Positions 5,026 through 34,689 of a stretch of DNA of 40,357 nt are shown in pieces. Where the stretch lies: IMG/VR virus record IMGVR_UViG_2740892106_000010; one strand, written 5' to 3'. The position numbers and the translations under genes were made by a program. Origin of the DNA: a virus. Lineage: Duplodnaviria > Heunggongvirae > Uroviricota > Caudoviricetes. The notes below the pieces were generated by a model. The model worked only from the letters and a program-made list of their open reading frames with translations, was not told where the DNA came from and made no database searches. Each line of letters opens with the position of its first letter. Within the stretch, counting starts at the first letter, position 1.

Positions 5026-5102
5026 TTACCGTTGAGGTAATAATTATGCGTATTTGGTTTGATGTCAATAGATATGAGTTAAAAAAATTACCCATTAGGT
5101 AA
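5026..5102. promoter_or_regulatory. Leftward early promoter bracketed by two TTACC-N5-GGTAA palindromes
   Basis: Perfect palindromes at 5026..5040 and 5088..5102; on the minus strand a consensus -35 TTGACA (plus coordinates 5063..5068) and a TAATTA/AATTAT -10 about 17 bp downstream, with the -10 abutting the 5026 palindrome. Confidence 0.55.
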
Positions 5103-5114
5103 TAGTATAGGCAA

Positions 5115-5138
5115 TAAAAAAGCCGCCAGAAGGCGGCT
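5115..5138 (-). terminator. Rho-independent terminator after the repressor gene
   Basis: GC-rich hairpin AGCCGCC-agaa-GGCGGCT followed on the minus strand by a T-run, just downstream of the stop at 5160. Confidence 0.6.
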
Positions 5139-5159
5139 TACTTACTGAAAAATATGATT

Positions 5160-5744
5160 TTATTGTTTGTTTTTTTCGTTCTGGTTGATGACAAATTCAA
5201 TGTAACTTTCGATCTTTGCTTTCTCGGTTTCGGGTAACAATGCGTAGCGCGAGCGGTCATAGTTGATGGTCGCAGGGTCGTGCGGGTGAATCAGTAATTC
5301 ATAGCCGTGACGCCCGAATGCTGATGCAACATTCTCCAGGGTGGAAATGGAAACACTGACCTCATTGTTTAACAGGCGGCTGATTGTCACCTGGGCGACG
5401 CCGGATGCGCGGTGAAGTTTTCCCTGAGTTGAAAGGTCGCGGCTTTCGCTCATCCAGCGTTCCAGGTTGTGAGCCGCCAGCTGACCAATGTCGCTTGGGC
5501 CGACAGGCTGAAAACCTTCCTGAGAAAGCGAGCGATCGATATCAAGCCAGTTACGTGGTTTATTGGCGGCAGCTTCAATTTTTCGCGCAACCTGGTCGCC
5601 GATAACCTTCTTGCCAAGAGCCCAGCGGTTTACCAGATTTGCCTGAGTTCCAAGTTTTTCTGCCATCCGCGTCTGAACACCATTGAATTCACGGTCGATC
5701 AAGTCGTTGAGATTTTGCCTGCGGACGTCCTGGATACTTTTCAT
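5160..5744 (-). CDS. Prophage repressor candidate with two helix-turn-helix (XRE-type) domains and no peptidase S24 domain
   Basis: 194-aa ORF; two HTH-like segments (QTRMAEKLGTQANLVNRWALGKK and VAQVTISRLLNNEVSVSISTLENVA); divergent from a cro-like gene with operator-like palindromes between them; no Ala-Gly/Ser-Lys autocleavage module evident. Confidence 0.7.
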   Translation of the reverse strand: MKSIQDVRRQNLNDLIDREFNGVQTRMAEKLGTQANLVNRWALGKKVIGDQVARKIEAAANKPRNWLDIDRSLSQEGFQPVGPSDIGQLAAHNLERWMSESRDLSTQGKLHRASGVAQVTISRLLNNEVSVSISTLENVASAFGRHGYELLIHPHDPATINYDRSRYALLPETEKAKIESYIEFVINQNEKNKQ

Positions 5745-5799
5745 TTTCTGGAAAATCGCCTCATATATGAATCAGTAGATGATTCAATTTAAAGCAATA

Positions 5800-5862
5800 T
5801 TACCCAACAGGTAAATGCACCTCATGGGTAACTATCCTTGATTTTTGTTACCTTATGGGTGA
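5800..5862. promoter_or_regulatory. Immunity-region operators between the divergent repressor and cro-like genes
   Basis: Three adjacent sites: TTACCcaacaGGTAA (5800..5814, perfect), GCACCtcatgGGTAA (about 5817..5831, degenerate left half) and TTACCttatgGGTGA (5848..5862, one mismatch); a TTGATT -35-like hexamer lies between them. Confidence 0.6.
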
Positions 5863-5898
5863 ATATTTATTATCTGAAATAAATATCAGGCAATAGCT

Positions 5899-6129
5899 AT
5901 GAGCGATAACGGACATTTCGATTTCAAAAAGCACTGGCTTGCACTTACTCCGGATGAGCGTGAAGCCTTCGCACAGGAAGCCGGAACGACGAGTCACTAT
6001 ATCCAGACTCACTTAACAGGTAAGCGCAAAATGCCAGGTAAAGTATTGATGAATGGGCTTTTTAAAGCCTGTAAAACAAGACAATGGCTGCGCTCAAAAG
6101 CAGAACTGGCATACTTCTTCTACTCATGA
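5899..6129 (+). CDS. Cro-like small HTH regulator
   Basis: 76-aa ORF divergent from the repressor; HTH-like segment AQEAGTTSHYIQTHLTGKR; followed by an intrinsic terminator. Confidence 0.55.
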   Translation: MSDNGHFDFKKHWLALTPDEREAFAQEAGTTSHYIQTHLTGKRKMPGKVLMNGLFKACKTRQWLRSKAELAYFFYS

Positions 6130-6151
6130 TATCCAGCTACAACCCTCTGTA

Positions 6152-6174
6152 GACCGCCACCCGGCGGTCTTTTC
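6152..6174 (+). terminator. Rho-independent terminator after the cro-like gene
   Basis: Hairpin GACCGCC-accc-GGCGGTC followed by TTTTC. Confidence 0.6.
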
Positions 6175-6184
6175 ATATCTATTC

Positions 6185-6199
6185 GTACCTCAAAGGTAA
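6185..6199. promoter_or_regulatory. Operator-like site GTACC-N5-GGTAA (one mismatch to the TTACC-N5-GGTAA palindrome)
   Basis: Lies between the cro terminator and the downstream replication genes. Confidence 0.4.
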
Positions 6200-31911: not shown

Positions 31912-32457
31912 CTATTCCTTCCATTTATCAGAAAAAAGATCTTCTTCTAAAGGCATTGGTTCTGTTTTTGTTTTCTCAAAGAATTGATAACTGATAGTGA
32001 TTGCTGCCTCTTTAAACTCTTCTTGCTCAGTTATGTTGTGGGCATCTGCGTCAACAAAAAACATAACCAGCGCATCACGATTGTGATTTACCGAATAAAC
32101 TAAAAAGCAATCACTTGTTGGTATGCATTTTACTTGCACAGACGCTATATTTTTCCATGCATCCCAAGATGATTTTTTACCAGTGTGTTTTTTATCACTA
32201 TATTCTGGAATATAGTCTTGGTTATCGACATGAGTATGCCTGACATTTAGTTTAAGCATTTCTGTCGGACGAGCAAATGCAGCATCTTTACCAAGAGATG
32301 GATGGTATCCCGTTTTCCAATACTGGGTAAAGGCATCAGATACTTTCTTCAGCTCAAGATCAGATGCACAAAGGGCCGAGAAATTTTGCGTATGCAATAC
32401 TCGACCCTTATATCTGACAATTTGATTTTTATCATTCTGCGACGCAGACGAACTCAT
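31912..32457 (-). CDS. Hypothetical protein (AT-rich moron, 181 aa)
   Basis: ATG at 32457 with AAGGA RBS (track start 32484 is TTG); AT-rich; no recognisable motif. Confidence 0.5.
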   Translation of the reverse strand: MSSSASQNDKNQIVRYKGRVLHTQNFSALCASDLELKKVSDAFTQYWKTGYHPSLGKDAAFARPTEMLKLNVRHTHVDNQDYIPEYSDKKHTGKKSSWDAWKNIASVQVKCIPTSDCFLVYSVNHNRDALVMFFVDADAHNITEQEEFKEAAITISYQFFEKTKTEPMPLEEDLFSDKWKE

Positions 32458-32611
32458 AATTTTCCTTATTGTTACGAGAATCAAAGAAAGCGCGGGATAC
32501 GCGACTTGCGTGATCTTTTGTCATAGTAACTTTTACGTACTCTACGCTTCCATTGAAAGAACGTCTTGCGGCAGCTTGCGCTCTACGCATCTGCAATTTT
32601 TCGTTTCGCAT
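32432..32611 (-). CDS. Small basic protein (59 aa) overlapping the start of the downstream gene
   Basis: ORF below the track cut-off with GAGGT RBS; overlaps the 181-aa gene by about 26 nt in another frame. Confidence 0.25.
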   Translation of the reverse strand: MRNEKLQMRRAQAAARRSFNGSVEYVKVTMTKDHASRVSRAFFDSRNNKENYEFVCVAE

Positions 32612-32671: not shown

Positions 32672-32714
32672 TTACCCTTGAGGTAATAGTACGCTATTCA
32701 CCCACAGTCTGCAA
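32672..32714. promoter_or_regulatory. Leftward promoter with overlapping TTACC-N5-GGTAA palindrome
   Basis: Perfect palindrome at 32672..32686; on the minus strand TTGCAG (-35-like), a 17-bp spacer and TACTAT (-10-like) abutting the palindrome. Confidence 0.45.
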
Positions 32715-32758: not shown

Positions 32759-33493
32759 TCAGAAGAACCCTGCCTTGTCGTTGATGTACTCCGCGTGCGT
32801 CTGGATATCACGCAGGCATTTGCTCACACCAACGATGTAGCAGAACATGGTGGTCAGCTCCGCCGCCGCGCCCGATACGTCGTGCCCGTCGTCCTGTAAC
32901 TGGTTCAGCAGATTCATCAGCAGTGAGTTCTCCGTCAGGCCGAGAACACCAGACGGAGAATGAATCAGACTGCGGTAGCCGGGCTTCAGTGGGGCACTGT
33001 ATTCTTTTTTGTCTTCCAGCTTGATCGCCTCCATAATGGCGGGCATGAATTTTTCAATTACCTGAGTGGCCTTTGATAAATCAGCTCCACCTGAGAGACG
33101 AACATCTCCGCTGACATTTGCGGGTTTTCTGTCGAAGTAGCAATCTTCCAGTTTTTCGAAGACCTCCCACGCTTTTTCAGTCTCAAGAATTTTCGCATGT
33201 CGTGCTGCACCGCGAGCGGTCCATAAGAAAAGATGACTTACTTTTGGTGCAATATTAAGCAAACCTCTTTGAGAGGACTCGTTCTTAAATGCTCGTAATT
33301 CTTCGCCTATCAGCTTGAAACAATGTTTTCCCTCAATGAATCGATCTGCATTTCGTTGATAGTTTTGACGAATCAGTTTGGGTTCTGTGTCATACAAATC
33401 AGCAAGCATTTCTGTAGTCATTACAGGGATGTTGCAATGAGTTGTTATCGGCAACTTATCAATAGCTATATTACGCATTTTCATTGCCTCCAT
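32759..33493 (-). CDS. Antirepressor-like protein (ORF6N/Rha-type N-terminal domain plus C-terminal domain)
   Basis: 244-aa ORF; N-terminal region (IPVMTTEMLADLYDTEPKLIRQNYQRNADRFIEGKHCFKL) resembles ORF6N/Rha antirepressor domains; C-terminal about 70 aa is paralogous to the small protein encoded at 34292..34549. Confidence 0.65.
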   Translation of the reverse strand: MEAMKMRNIAIDKLPITTHCNIPVMTTEMLADLYDTEPKLIRQNYQRNADRFIEGKHCFKLIGEELRAFKNESSQRGLLNIAPKVSHLFLWTARGAARHAKILETEKAWEVFEKLEDCYFDRKPANVSGDVRLSGGADLSKATQVIEKFMPAIMEAIKLEDKKEYSAPLKPGYRSLIHSPSGVLGLTENSLLMNLLNQLQDDGHDVSGAAAELTTMFCYIVGVSKCLRDIQTHAEYINDKAGFF

Positions 33494-33977
33494 CTTTCAC
33501 GACGAAATAGCAATTATCTTTATAATCTAACTGGATGAACTTTATGTTTTCAGGGAGTTTTACAGAAAGAGTTTTTGCACAAGCAAAACCAAAATCTGCG
33601 CCAGAAGCATCCATATACCTTAATAATTGTTTTAATGCTGAAGGAGAAAAAGTATCTACCTTCACCTCAACAGGGTAACCATCTTTTGTTTTTAGGTCTG
33701 GTTGACCTGGTCCACCAAGTATTTCAGCGTTAAGGTATTTTGCTATTTCTGGATAAGCGTTGTATTCAGAGCGTAGTTTTGCCTTGTTATCGACTGCTAG
33801 TTGCATAAGATGATCAAACAAATTGGTATCTAAATCTGCCCCTTCATCCCACATTCTATTTCTACAGCTAATCAATTCACTGACCAGTGGTGCACTTTCT
33901 TGCCTTAGCATAAGAAGGAGTGGAGAATTAGAAATTAACCAATACAGATCGTCGTTTGAGATTTTTTGGCCTGGCAT
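33471..33977 (-). CDS. Hypothetical protein with PD-(D/E)XK-like motif
   Basis: 168-aa AT-rich ORF with GAGG RBS; D-x(n)-EVK motif (DGYPVEVKVD); overlaps the start of the Ant-like gene. Confidence 0.45.
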   Translation of the reverse strand: MPGQKISNDDLYWLISNSPLLLMLRQESAPLVSELISCRNRMWDEGADLDTNLFDHLMQLAVDNKAKLRSEYNAYPEIAKYLNAEILGGPGQPDLKTKDGYPVEVKVDTFSPSALKQLLRYMDASGADFGFACAKTLSVKLPENIKFIQLDYKDNCYFVVKDGGNENA

Positions 33978-34132
33978 AGCGATACCTCTACTAGTAAGTT
34001 ACCCACCACCGCAACGCCAATTGCTGGTGGTGAACTGGACAAGGTTGGCGTACCGGCCTAGTAGGTACCGGCGCACCTTTCGGTGCCCCTGCCCAGCCCA
34101 CCATAATTCGGATATGACTGTGCTATACGCAT

Positions 34133-34154
34133 AAAAAAACCACGTCTGGCGTGG
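34133..34154 (-). terminator. Rho-independent terminator (minus strand)
   Basis: Hairpin CCACG-ccaga-CGTGG followed on the minus strand by TTTTTTT. Confidence 0.55.
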
Positions 34155-34245
34155 TATGCGCCTACTAGTAATCCGGGACGCCAATCCCGGCACTGGATTT
34201 TGCCAGTGCCCGATTACTATGGCACAAGAGGAGTGCGATGTAAAT

Positions 34246-34288
34246 TTACCGCAAAGGTAAATATAAGCACTCCATTTGGTAATTGCAA
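34246..34288. promoter_or_regulatory. Leftward sigma70-like promoter with overlapping TTACC-N5-GGTAA palindrome
   Basis: On the minus strand: -35 TTGCAA (34283..34288), 16-bp spacer, -10 TTATAT (34261..34266), then the perfect palindrome TTACCgcaaaGGTAA (34246..34260) over the predicted start site. Confidence 0.45.
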
Positions 34289-34291
34289 ACC

Positions 34292-34549
34292 TTATCTGGT
34301 TTGTTTTCGTAATTGTTCGGCACAATAGTCGAGATGTGTTTGCAGATCCTGCATAGACATCTGTGAGCTGGTGACGTAGTTAATCAGTGCAGTCAGTTCG
34401 GCAAGTGGGCCATCGACATTAAATCCATCCTTATCGAGATCCCGGAGTAATTTCATCAAGTGCGATCCCTCCACCAGTGACCTGACGCCTCCCGGCGTGT
34501 GAATCCTTTCGGTAAATCCGTCTTCCAGTGGATAGTGATACTGCTGCAT
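34292..34549 (-). CDS. SOS-regulated small protein (85 aa), paralog of the Ant-like C-terminal domain; antirepressor candidate
   Basis: ATG at 34549 with GGAG RBS (track start 34567 is TTG); near-consensus LexA box 22 bp upstream; alignable by eye to residues about 170-240 of the protein encoded at 32759..33493. Confidence 0.55.
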   Translation of the reverse strand: MQQYHYPLEDGFTERIHTPGGVRSLVEGSHLMKLLRDLDKDGFNVDGPLAELTALINYVTSSQMSMQDLQTHLDYCAEQLRKQTR

Positions 34550-34570
34550 CTTATCTTCTCCATGCAATAA

Positions 34571-34586
34571 CTGTATAAATATACAG
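34571..34586. promoter_or_regulatory. LexA (SOS) box
   Basis: aaCTGTATAAATATACAGta matches the CTGT-N8-ACAG consensus with an AT-rich spacer (one spacer deviation from TACTGTATATATATACAGTA). Confidence 0.8.
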
Positions 34587-34624: not shown

Positions 34625-34689
34625 ATTACCTGAAAGGTAATATCTATTCATATTCACAGTCTTTCTATCCATATGTGGTTTTTCAGGTA
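34625..34689. promoter_or_regulatory. Divergent regulatory region upstream of the tailspike gene
   Basis: Perfect palindrome TTACCtgaaaGGTAA at 34625..34639 followed about 32 bp later by ATGTGGTTtttcaGGTAA (34672..34689); on the minus strand a TTGCAA -35-like hexamer abuts the palindrome and leads into the LexA box. Confidence 0.5.

Follow-up and report, generated by a model that had tools for sequence, protein, structure and literature searches.

Tandem IsrK-type and C4 RNAs upstream of an antirepressor operon in a Uetakevirus-type Escherichia coli prophage

What does a structured, operator-flanked RNA do immediately upstream of an antirepressor operon? The window (the whole 40,357-nt stretch of DNA analysed here, IMG/VR record IMGVR_UViG_2740892106_000010) is an E. 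coli prophage of the phiV10/epsilon15 (Uetakevirus) type, sharing 96% identity with phage HEMP4 and 92% with phiV10. The original prediction, made from the sequence without database searches, placed at this locus a repressor-controlled promoter driving an RNA of about 110 nt that ends at an intrinsic terminator, to be understood either as a small RNA or as a terminator-containing leader of the Ant-like operon. The structured RNA is real, and it is an uncharacterised member of a long-known module (P1 immI, P4 CI, Gifsy-1 IsrK). The key regulator was missed: a C4 antisense RNA at 34023..34108, just beyond the stretch considered. The feature very probably forms the 5' half of a module for antirepressor control of the immI type, as found in P1/P7 (c4-icd-ant), P4 and Gifsy-1.

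Two RNA families in tandem

The predicted RNA belongs to the isrK family (Rfam RF01394), matching the full-length model (1-77) at 68.1 bits (threshold 50, E = 1.2e-12). A second family, c4-a1b1 (RF03163), matches hairpins 1 and 2 (34170..34222; E = 4.5e-10) at 45.1 bits and misses its threshold of 46.7 bits by 1.6 bits; the a1 and b1 boxes are present nonetheless, and the same family scores above threshold in P1 and VT2-Sakai. Among 13 homologues, hairpin 1 is 96.6% paired, with compensatory changes in five of its seven pairs, and hairpin 2 is 94.9% paired across homologues. A linker of 20 nt separates hairpin 2 from the terminator. Both of the strong hairpins described originally are thus present, but two 'CC' bases had been counted in each of them and cannot serve both, since the hairpins abut. 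The terminator hairpin and its T-run were described correctly. The fold check proposed with the prediction also bears it out: for the 122-nt transcript from the upstream promoter the folding energy is -51.3 kcal/mol (z = -5.4), a value that none of 200 shuffled sequences reaches. The IsrK sequence is also the 5' part of the read-through leader. The choice between small RNA and leader would therefore be resolved as both, as in the Gifsy-1 homologue, where a fraction of isrK transcription continues past the terminator and both roles were demonstrated (Hershko-Shalev et al. 2016, PMC4825925). Hfq binding by IsrK is known from the Gifsy-1 experiments only (PMC4825925).

Directly downstream, C4 (RF01695) matches model positions 1-87 at 76.7 bits (threshold 45, E = 2e-13). 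Its closing stem comprises 17 bp and surrounds two small hairpins, and nine of the predicted pairs show compensatory changes across 16 sequences. C4 is followed by an ORF6N/phrog_1760 anti-repressor gene, the gene context that marks the C4 family. Alignment to the annotated P1 C4, used to set the ends of the mature form, gives a predicted 77-nt RNA at 34026..34102 ending in ...CACCACC. By analogy with P1, C4 is probably excised from the leader to this length, RNase P being the enzyme expected for the C4 family. An Rfam scan of the whole window returned three matches: a tRNA (tRNA-Arg by ARAGORN), isrK and C4.

Table 1. Features of the locus and related genes in the window, from upstream to downstream on the minus strand; the repressor and cro-like genes are listed last
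Feature	Position (strand)	Description
LexA box CTGTATATTTATACAG	34571..34586 (-)	near-consensus; upstream of 85-aa gene
85-aa ORF	34292..34549 (-)	phrog_450, E = 9e-48; stop codon at 34292
Upstream promoter TTGCAA-16-TTATAT	34261..34288 (-)	TTGCAA 34283..34288, TTATAT 34261..34266
Operator TTACCTTTGCGGTAA	34246..34260 (-)	perfect TTACC-N5-GGTAA palindrome; candidate prophage-repressor site
IsrK promoter TTTACA-17-TGcCATAGT (extended -10)	34216..34244 (-)	TTTACA 34239..34244, TGcCATAGT 34216..34224; P1 equivalent P1c4 (P51b)
IsrK-type small RNA, 77 nt	34133..34209 (-)	hairpin 1, hairpin 2, single-stranded linker, terminator
Hairpin 1, GCACUGG/CCAGUGC	34190..34209 (-)	
Hairpin 2, CGGGA(U)/(G)UCCCG	34174..34189 (-)	
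a1 AUUGGCGU	34178..34185 (-)	hairpin 2 loop of IsrK; complement of a'
b1 CUAGUAGG	34161..34168 (-)	IsrK linker; complementary to b' (8-nt exact complement)
Terminator ACCACG-CCAGA-CGUGGU + 7 U	34133..34155 (-)	stem 34139..34155, U-run 34133..34139
Bracketing helix	GCGCAU 34156..34161 / AUGCGU 34127..34132 (-)	surrounds terminator; whole element 34127..34161
C4 antisense RNA	34023..34108 (-)	Rfam RF01695; 25 nt downstream of IsrK
b' CCUACUAG	34058..34065 (-)	C4 hairpin loop
a' ACGCCAA	34045..34051 (-)	C4 internal loop; pairs with a2 UUGGCGU
a2 AUUGGCGU	34014..34021 (-)	directly 3' of C4; complementary to a'
b2 CUAGUAGAGGUA	33983..33994 (-)	covers Shine-Dalgarno GAGG of 168-aa ORF
168-aa ORF	33471..33977 (-)	AUG 33977; first gene under C4; place of icd in P1
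Ant-type antirepressor	32759..33478 (-)	ORF6N N-terminal domain (PF10543, E = 1e-18); phrog_1760, E = 1.5e-97
194-aa HTH repressor	5160..5744	operator palindromes flank gene
cro-like gene	5899..6129	operator palindromes flank gene

The order isrK then C4 was found in all 15 related loci examined, P1 included. In the 12 phage loci first fetched, C4 scored above threshold in every case and isrK in 11; the sole exception, SW-37, still shows the unit in the alignment. Both families are above threshold in two further loci reached through the 168-aa protein (L014 and L016). Several E. coli chromosomes, for instance that of strain MLI109, are 100% identical over the isrK-C4 locus, and blastn detected this stretch in 275 phage records, Stx phages among them, and its homologues in 456 of 5,426 complete E. 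coli genomes, which makes it a common module. A coding reading of the region (a 108-codon minus-strand ORF at 33999..34325 and plus-strand ORFs) was rejected: the homologues (alignments A1 and A3) carry indels whose lengths are not divisible by three, yet their RNA structure covaries.

Promoters, operator and neighbouring genes

The upstream promoter is present on the minus strand as originally described. As a match, it does not exceed chance (4 promoter-like sites in 1.5 kb versus 3.4 expected), so what speaks for it is its conservation: in a by-eye reading, eight of nine Uetakevirus-type loci retain TTGNAA with an A/T-rich hexamer 16-18 nt away, although the flanks have diverged. Its position is equivalent to that of P1 P2c4 (P51a), and the operator adjoins or overlaps its -10 and +1. 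The second promoter lies downstream of the operator, and its TGCCATAGT sequence is invariant in 9/9 Uetakevirus-type loci. In all lambdoid homologues the -10 element ends 6 nt before hairpin 1, as does the annotated P51b -10 (TATAGT) of P1, and the extended -10 of the window likewise ends 6 nt before 34209, a conserved distance. On this basis transcription most likely starts mainly at 34209, which would yield the 77-nt IsrK, and additional transcripts may begin at about 34253 from the upstream promoter. The site called a good promoter in the original prediction thus exists but is less likely to supply the main transcript, and the stated length of about 110 nt is open to doubt: the RNA would measure about 121 nt from that promoter and 77 nt from 34209. 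The tandem -10 elements stand 45 nt apart in the window versus 40 nt in P1.

The perfect palindrome directly following the upstream promoter was recognised correctly, as was its probable role as a repressor operator. The window holds 15 copies (10 perfect and 5 with one mismatch) versus 0.64 expected; they flank the repressor and cro genes (5026-6199) and also precede several operons. At this locus the operator occupies a fixed position, -51..-37 from the IsrK 5' end, in 9/9 Uetakevirus-type loci, with conserved arms and a free spacer; the palindrome is absent from the lambdoid loci compared. Judged by its number and placement, it is very probably a true phage operator. Its centre lies at about -44 relative to the 34209 start, a position from which repression, indifference or activation of the IsrK promoter cannot be told by sequence, and the promoter under repressor control would be assigned by analogy with P1 and Gifsy-1.

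The gene upstream of this region carries a LexA box whose position is conserved in phiV10, Tyrion, EC.W1-9 and Phi05_1387. Its 85-aa product is 42% identical to Ant residues 158-231, the Ant C-terminal domain, and is probably a small SOS-controlled antirepressor. A terminator scan found none between this gene and 34155, so its transcripts would run into the IsrK unit; the proposal that the IsrK terminator also stops them is upheld.

Downstream of C4, the operon consists of the 168-aa ORF and the Ant gene, whose start overlaps the stop of the former by 8 nt. The Ant assignment of the original prediction is confirmed by PF10543 and phrog_1760. The 'nuclease-like' label of its partner rests only on an invariant PD...ExK-like motif (P93-D94...E104-x-K106 in this family). 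The 168-aa protein belongs to a rare family with 11 homologues; it matched phrog_18738 only, with no Pfam, NCBIfam or PDB match and no tblastn match in 50,697 phage records, and its AlphaFold model (mean pLDDT 44) is too low in confidence for use. In the two contigs examined (L014 and L016), its homologues likewise lie between C4 and an ORF6N Ant gene.

The prophage repressor has HTH domains and no peptidase domain, and since it would not be able to cleave itself, phage induction probably relies on antirepressors. When the homologous repressor or an antirepressor is overexpressed in the related phage ZX5, the lysis-lysogeny balance shifts; RNA control is not mentioned in that paper (PMC9782041).

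Covariation of the pairing boxes

The C4 RNA of the window carries two boxes, a' and b', each complementary to one site in IsrK (a1, b1) and one in the leader (a2, b2); box names follow P1. Exact complements of the C4 loop extend over 8 nt in the IsrK linker and 7 nt in the 5'UTR, where b' (CCUACUAG) faces b2 (CUAGUAG(A)GGUA) over the Shine-Dalgarno GAGG. Across 15 related loci the boxes change together. The b boxes are hypervariable among phages yet change jointly in all three places (Table 2). The a boxes behave alike: in three loci (L002, L010 and L011) the variant AUUGGUCU (UUGGUCU) occurs with AGACCAA, all three places having switched together.

Table 2. The b boxes in IsrK (b1), C4 (b') and the leader (b2) of related loci
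Locus	b1	b'	b2
Window	CUAGUAGG	CCUACUAG	CUAGUAGAGG
phiV10	CUAAAAGG	CCUUUUAG	CUAAAAGG
Tyrion	CUACAGAGG	CCUUUGUAG	CUACAAAGG
2H10	GUUAUCGG	CCGAUAAC	GUUAUCGGA
L014/L016 (168-aa gene as in window)	CUAAACGG	CCGUUUAG	CUAAACGAGG

In the first 13 loci, cognate exact runs average 6.5 nt with IsrK and 7.9 nt with the leader versus 3.8 and 4.5 nt for non-cognate partners. Counts of exact complements were used in place of RNAduplex matrices, in which GC-rich spurious pairings are noisy: cognate RNAduplex means are 3.5-6.5 kcal/mol lower, and the cognate pair ranks first in no more than 3-7 of 13 rows. Because the b and a boxes change jointly in all three places, the pattern is, at the level of sequence, the signature of a specificity-determining antisense interaction.

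A further covarying element surrounds the terminator. RNAalifold on a MAFFT alignment of linker, terminator and gap gave no pairs owing to misalignment, and per-sequence folds with a permutation test were used instead. The bracketing helix was predicted independently in 15 of 16 loci, and its cognate partners give a higher pairing sum than all but about 5e-5 of 40,320 permutations. This helix cannot decide termination, because it forms only in read-through RNA. A candidate antiterminator hairpin, formed by the linker with the 5' terminator arm, is weak: it amounts to 4-6 bp in an inconsistent register, with a permutation fraction of 0.04, and non-cognate partners often pair better.

Proposed mechanism, known relatives and rival explanations

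The order of elements in the window is that of P1 immI: operator and tandem promoters (candidate elements in the window), a1/b1, C4, a2/b2, first ORF and overlapping ant. In the annotated GenBank record of P1, the source of this comparison, the order reads Oc4 (Op51), P51a, P51b, a1, b1, C4, a2, b2, icd, ant1. Oc4, a C1 operator, overlaps the -35 of P2c4 (P51a), and P1c4 (P51b) lies 40 nt downstream; C4 measures 77 nt, b2 sits just before icd over its ribosome-binding site, and ant1 overlaps the end of icd. P1 also resembles the window in having a terminator-like hairpin in its a1/b1 unit and many repressor operators scattered over the genome. Its C4 scores above threshold, whereas its isrK match (35.1 bits, beginning 7 nt after the P51b -10) does not. 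The repressor and operator of the window (194-aa HTH protein, TTACC-N5-GGTAA) are unrelated to those of P1, the first ORF encodes 168 aa instead of the 73-aa Icd, the window Ant is of the ORF6N type, and the b-box specificities differ. Moreover, the window element is an integrated podovirus-type prophage, whereas P1 is a plasmid prophage. The C4 RNA of P1 pairs around the ribosome-binding site and so prevents ant from being expressed (PMC12197685, a review; PMC8198154).

The Gifsy-1 locus of Salmonella (isrK - STnc1160/orf45 - anrP) shares with the window the IsrK family, three hairpins and a leaky terminator, with a C4-like RNA directly downstream and then an antirepressor gene. There, short IsrK supplied in trans activates anrP translation 139-fold, and pairing with the C4 region was shown by the mutations G28A/G31A and C162U/C159U (PMC4825925). 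These mutations map exactly onto a1:a', and the a1 bases G28 and G31 are conserved in the window (34182 and 34179). Relative to Gifsy-1, the window adds the Uetakevirus operator, a second upstream promoter and the 168-aa gene before ant; a LexA-controlled mini-antirepressor gene lies directly upstream, and the isrJ/antQ context of Gifsy-1 was not found. The Gifsy-1 authors regard IsrK as a structural homologue of P4 seqA (PMC4825925). In satellite phage P4 (seqA - CI RNA - seqC), two target copies flank a processed antisense RNA, the arrangement predicted for the window, but CI ends the transcription of replication genes prematurely and does not act by a translational block of an antirepressor. 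The sar RNA of P22 represses antirepressor translation, as proposed here, but it is a true cis-antisense RNA from the opposite strand, with no structural or sequence relation to the window element.

Given the element order and C4 action of P1 and the Gifsy-1 data, C4 would repress the 168-aa ORF and Ant, and IsrK would compete with the leader. Transcription would proceed mainly from 34209, with possible additions from the upstream promoter (about 34253) and from read-in of the LexA-box gene. Most transcripts would end at the terminator as 77-nt IsrK; we infer its efficiency, like the start site and C4 processing. The remaining transcripts would read through and carry C4, which would probably be cut to 77 nt. 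In analogy to P1 and Gifsy-1, from which processing, translational block and decoy action are taken, b' and a' would pair with b2 and a2 of the leader and hide the Shine-Dalgarno sequence of the 168-aa ORF. Its translation would be blocked, as would that of the overlapping Ant by coupling or polarity, and the silence of Ant would keep the non-cleavable prophage repressor active. IsrK is expected to compete for C4 because its a1 and b1 boxes are the same as the leader boxes, and the IsrK:C4 ratio would then set whether Ant is made. Some Gifsy-1 data depart from a simple decoy model: with G28A in the a1 box in cis, basal expression goes up and not down (PMC4825925).

The Gifsy-1 work itself suggests a different arrangement, a structural switch in cis coupled to an upstream ORF, which would need no processed, trans-acting C4 and which we consider a lesser possibility. 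The read-through RNA would be inactive, the middle of IsrK being paired with the C4 region, until short IsrK remodelled it in trans; a small ORF inside the C4 sequence would then be translated and hand its ribosomes to the downstream gene. Native gels and compensatory mutants in Gifsy-1 favour such a switch (PMC4825925), and the window offers both a 37-codon frame (33991..34104) ending 13 nt before the AUG at 33977 and an IsrK:C4 RNAduplex energy of -53.7 kcal/mol at full length (-32.9 for the C4 core against mid-IsrK). However, a conserved upstream ORF equivalent to orf45 had to be rejected, since its length and frame vary among loci, with a separate ORF of 8-37 codons in seven loci and an in-frame fusion to the downstream gene in the other six; the conserved parts are the RNA structure and the boxes. 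The Gifsy-1 double mutants that restore the cis helix nevertheless stay 50-80 times derepressed (224 and 327 versus 4 units), and STnc1160 is a stable processed RNA from the C4 region (PMC4825925). The lasting derepression is the outcome predicted by loss of a':a2 pairing.

The placement of the terminator between the promoters and the Ant operon invites the attenuation or antitermination control put forward originally, in which regulated read-through at 34133..34155 would mainly set Ant expression by way of an antiterminator hairpin, a protein, or C4 acting on a1/b1 (compare P4 CI on seqA). Read-through is partial in Gifsy-1, whose authors raise P4-like, C4-dependent termination as possible (PMC4825925), and the linker pairs weakly with the 5' terminator arm in most loci. 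This reading is unlikely, as the alternative hairpin described above barely beats shuffled partners, the strongly covarying contacts lie at the ribosome-binding site and not at the terminator, and the lone helix that covaries in the terminator region needs read-through to form. Conservation of the upstream promoter-like site, the operator covering its -10/+1 and a 45-nt 5' extension able to pair with the linker would also suit a small RNA of about 120 nt that is independent of C4, is controlled by the repressor, comes from the upstream promoter only and acts on other targets. Such an RNA is quite improbable: the homologues in lambdoid phages and P1 lack the extension and begin at hairpin 1, and at each locus the variable boxes change with the neighbouring C4. 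That the element is the first terminator downstream of the LexA-box gene might finally make it a mere terminator with incidental hairpins, an idea that can practically be discounted in view of two Rfam families above threshold, the covariation, and the presence of the unit in lambdoid phages without such an upstream gene.

The immI-type module would explain how the second antirepressor of phiV10/epsilon15-like prophages is held silent. It opens no new question, its biology having been known since the P1 c4 work, reportedly that of Citron and Schuster in 1990 (as cited in PMC8198154), and the IsrK study of 2016. Rather speculatively, the Uetakevirus-type switch might be wired to two inputs, the repressor operator and SOS-driven read-in from the LexA-box gene. 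If so, the operator between the tandem promoters could set the amounts of long- and short-form IsrK, and SOS-induced read-in from the 85-aa gene would supply extra a1/b1 decoy RNA. DNA damage would then produce the 85-aa antirepressor first and, by C4 titration, unlock Ant and the 168-aa protein, an RNA-based feed-forward amplifier of induction in which the terminator-bracketing helix would mark a processing or decision point.

In practical terms, both RNAs are unannotated in the phiV10 GenBank record, which lists only a 'putative rho-independent terminator' at this place, and in the one RefSeq chromosome checked, where nothing is annotated between the two flanking genes. Several phage records carry spurious 'hypothetical protein' or 'Ash family' ORFs that overlie both RNAs. 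More broadly, the P1-type immI module appears as a portable cassette of podovirus-type, lambdoid, Stx and P1-type phages, into which each lineage fits an operator and a variable b-box specificity of its own.

IsrK region: bracketing helix, box pairing and the frame within C4

The terminator of IsrK, the isrK-type small RNA encoded upstream of the antisense RNA C4, is enclosed by a further helix of 6-8 bp that both the Rfam isrK and C4 models lack. Its 5' strand follows the b1 box of the IsrK linker, while its 3' strand lies directly past the U-run, so that the helix can form only in read-through RNA. Its base pairs change in concert across P1, the lambdoid loci and the Uetakevirus loci (GCGCAU:AUGCGU, GCACAU:AUGUGU, GCGACAA:UUGUCGC and CGGACA:UGUCCG; permutation fraction 5e-5). 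The helix could have a role in processing. At the other end of the gene, a 3-nt deletion in phiV10 removes the TTTACA -35 element of the IsrK promoter, leaving the extended -10 alone.

In the specificity type found in the window, b1 and the b2 box of the leader each hold the 8-nt self-complementary sequence UACUAGUA. This would let IsrK base-pair directly to the leader or to itself, and the b1:b2 pairing is present in the minimum-free-energy structure of the read-through RNA. The self-complementarity may be a coincidence.

A reading frame that starts inside C4 corresponds to orf45 of the Salmonella prophage Gifsy-1. Across 13 loci, neither its length nor its frame is conserved: at the short end it has 8 codons, and at the other extreme it is fused in frame to the downstream reading frame. 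RefSeq leaves the isrK-C4 interval of the E. coli MLI109 chromosome (L013) unannotated, and locus tag RS07900 is missing from the numbering between the flanking genes. In several GenBank phage records, a CDS named 'hypothetical protein' or 'Ash family protein' covers these RNAs.

Features of the window by position
Feature	Position	Strand	Remark
Likely prophage repressor, 194 aa	5160..5744	-	HTH_3 match, residues 106-147
Cro-like protein, 76 aa	5899..6129	+	divergent from repressor gene
tRNA-Arg gene, anticodon TCT	14816..14892	-	
YafO-like toxin ORF	31912..32484	-	PF13957, 25.9 bits; preceded by small overlapping ORF
168-aa ORF	33471..33977	-	in the place held by icd, first ORF of the ant operon, in P1
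37-codon reading frame	33991..34104	-	AUG in C4 5' end; equivalent of Gifsy-1 orf45
UACUAGUA in b1 and b2	34163..34170 and 33988..33995	-	
Helix bracketing IsrK terminator, 6-8 bp	34156..34161 paired with 34127..34132	-	covariation
LexA box and 85-aa protein gene	34292..34586	-	box in front of gene
Operator sites, 15 bp each	starts 5026, 5088, 5800, 5848, 6185, 8087, 8149, 12070, 12088, 15215, 31423, 32672, 34246, 34626, 34858		

The 168-aa ORF and the YafO-like ORF

The 168-aa ORF belongs to a rare enterobacterial family with 11 homologues, each at least 71% identical, and has no homologue in any of 50,697 phage records. An overlapping ORF6N Ant gene follows the homologue in both of the homologous loci examined. 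Because P93-D94...E104-x-K106 is invariant and falls within predicted beta strands, the sequence suggests a PD-(D/E)xK nuclease; the AlphaFold model, at pLDDT 44, was too poor to use.

Downstream of ant, the YafO-like ORF and its small overlapping partner may form a repressor-controlled toxin-antitoxin pair. An operator copy (32672..32686) lies upstream.

Dispersed operators and a probable small antirepressor

The window contains 15 copies of the TTACC-N5-GGTAA palindrome, versus 0.64 expected; TA often borders them, and they are spread over the entire phage genome. Some lie within promoter spacers (8087 and 5848), one sits on top of a ribosome-binding site (8149), and further copies lie on either side of the repressor and cro genes. 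In phiV10, a perfect 35-bp palindrome, GTGCTTATATTTACCGCAAAGGTAAATATAAGCAC (L001, 2475..2509), has the operator in its middle. This scattered arrangement resembles the dispersed operator network of the P1 C1 repressor; we found no description of such a network for phiV10/epsilon15-type phages.

Another copy (34626..34640) lies just upstream of the LexA box and the 85-aa gene, whose product corresponds to just the C-terminal domain of Ant (42% identity) and is probably a small antirepressor under SOS control, adjoining the full-length antirepressor controlled by C4. A further HTH-like match in the likely repressor, to the YdaS family at residues 21-61, stays below threshold. Since the protein carries an HTH but lacks an S24 peptidase domain, its architecture implies that prophage induction runs through antirepressors.
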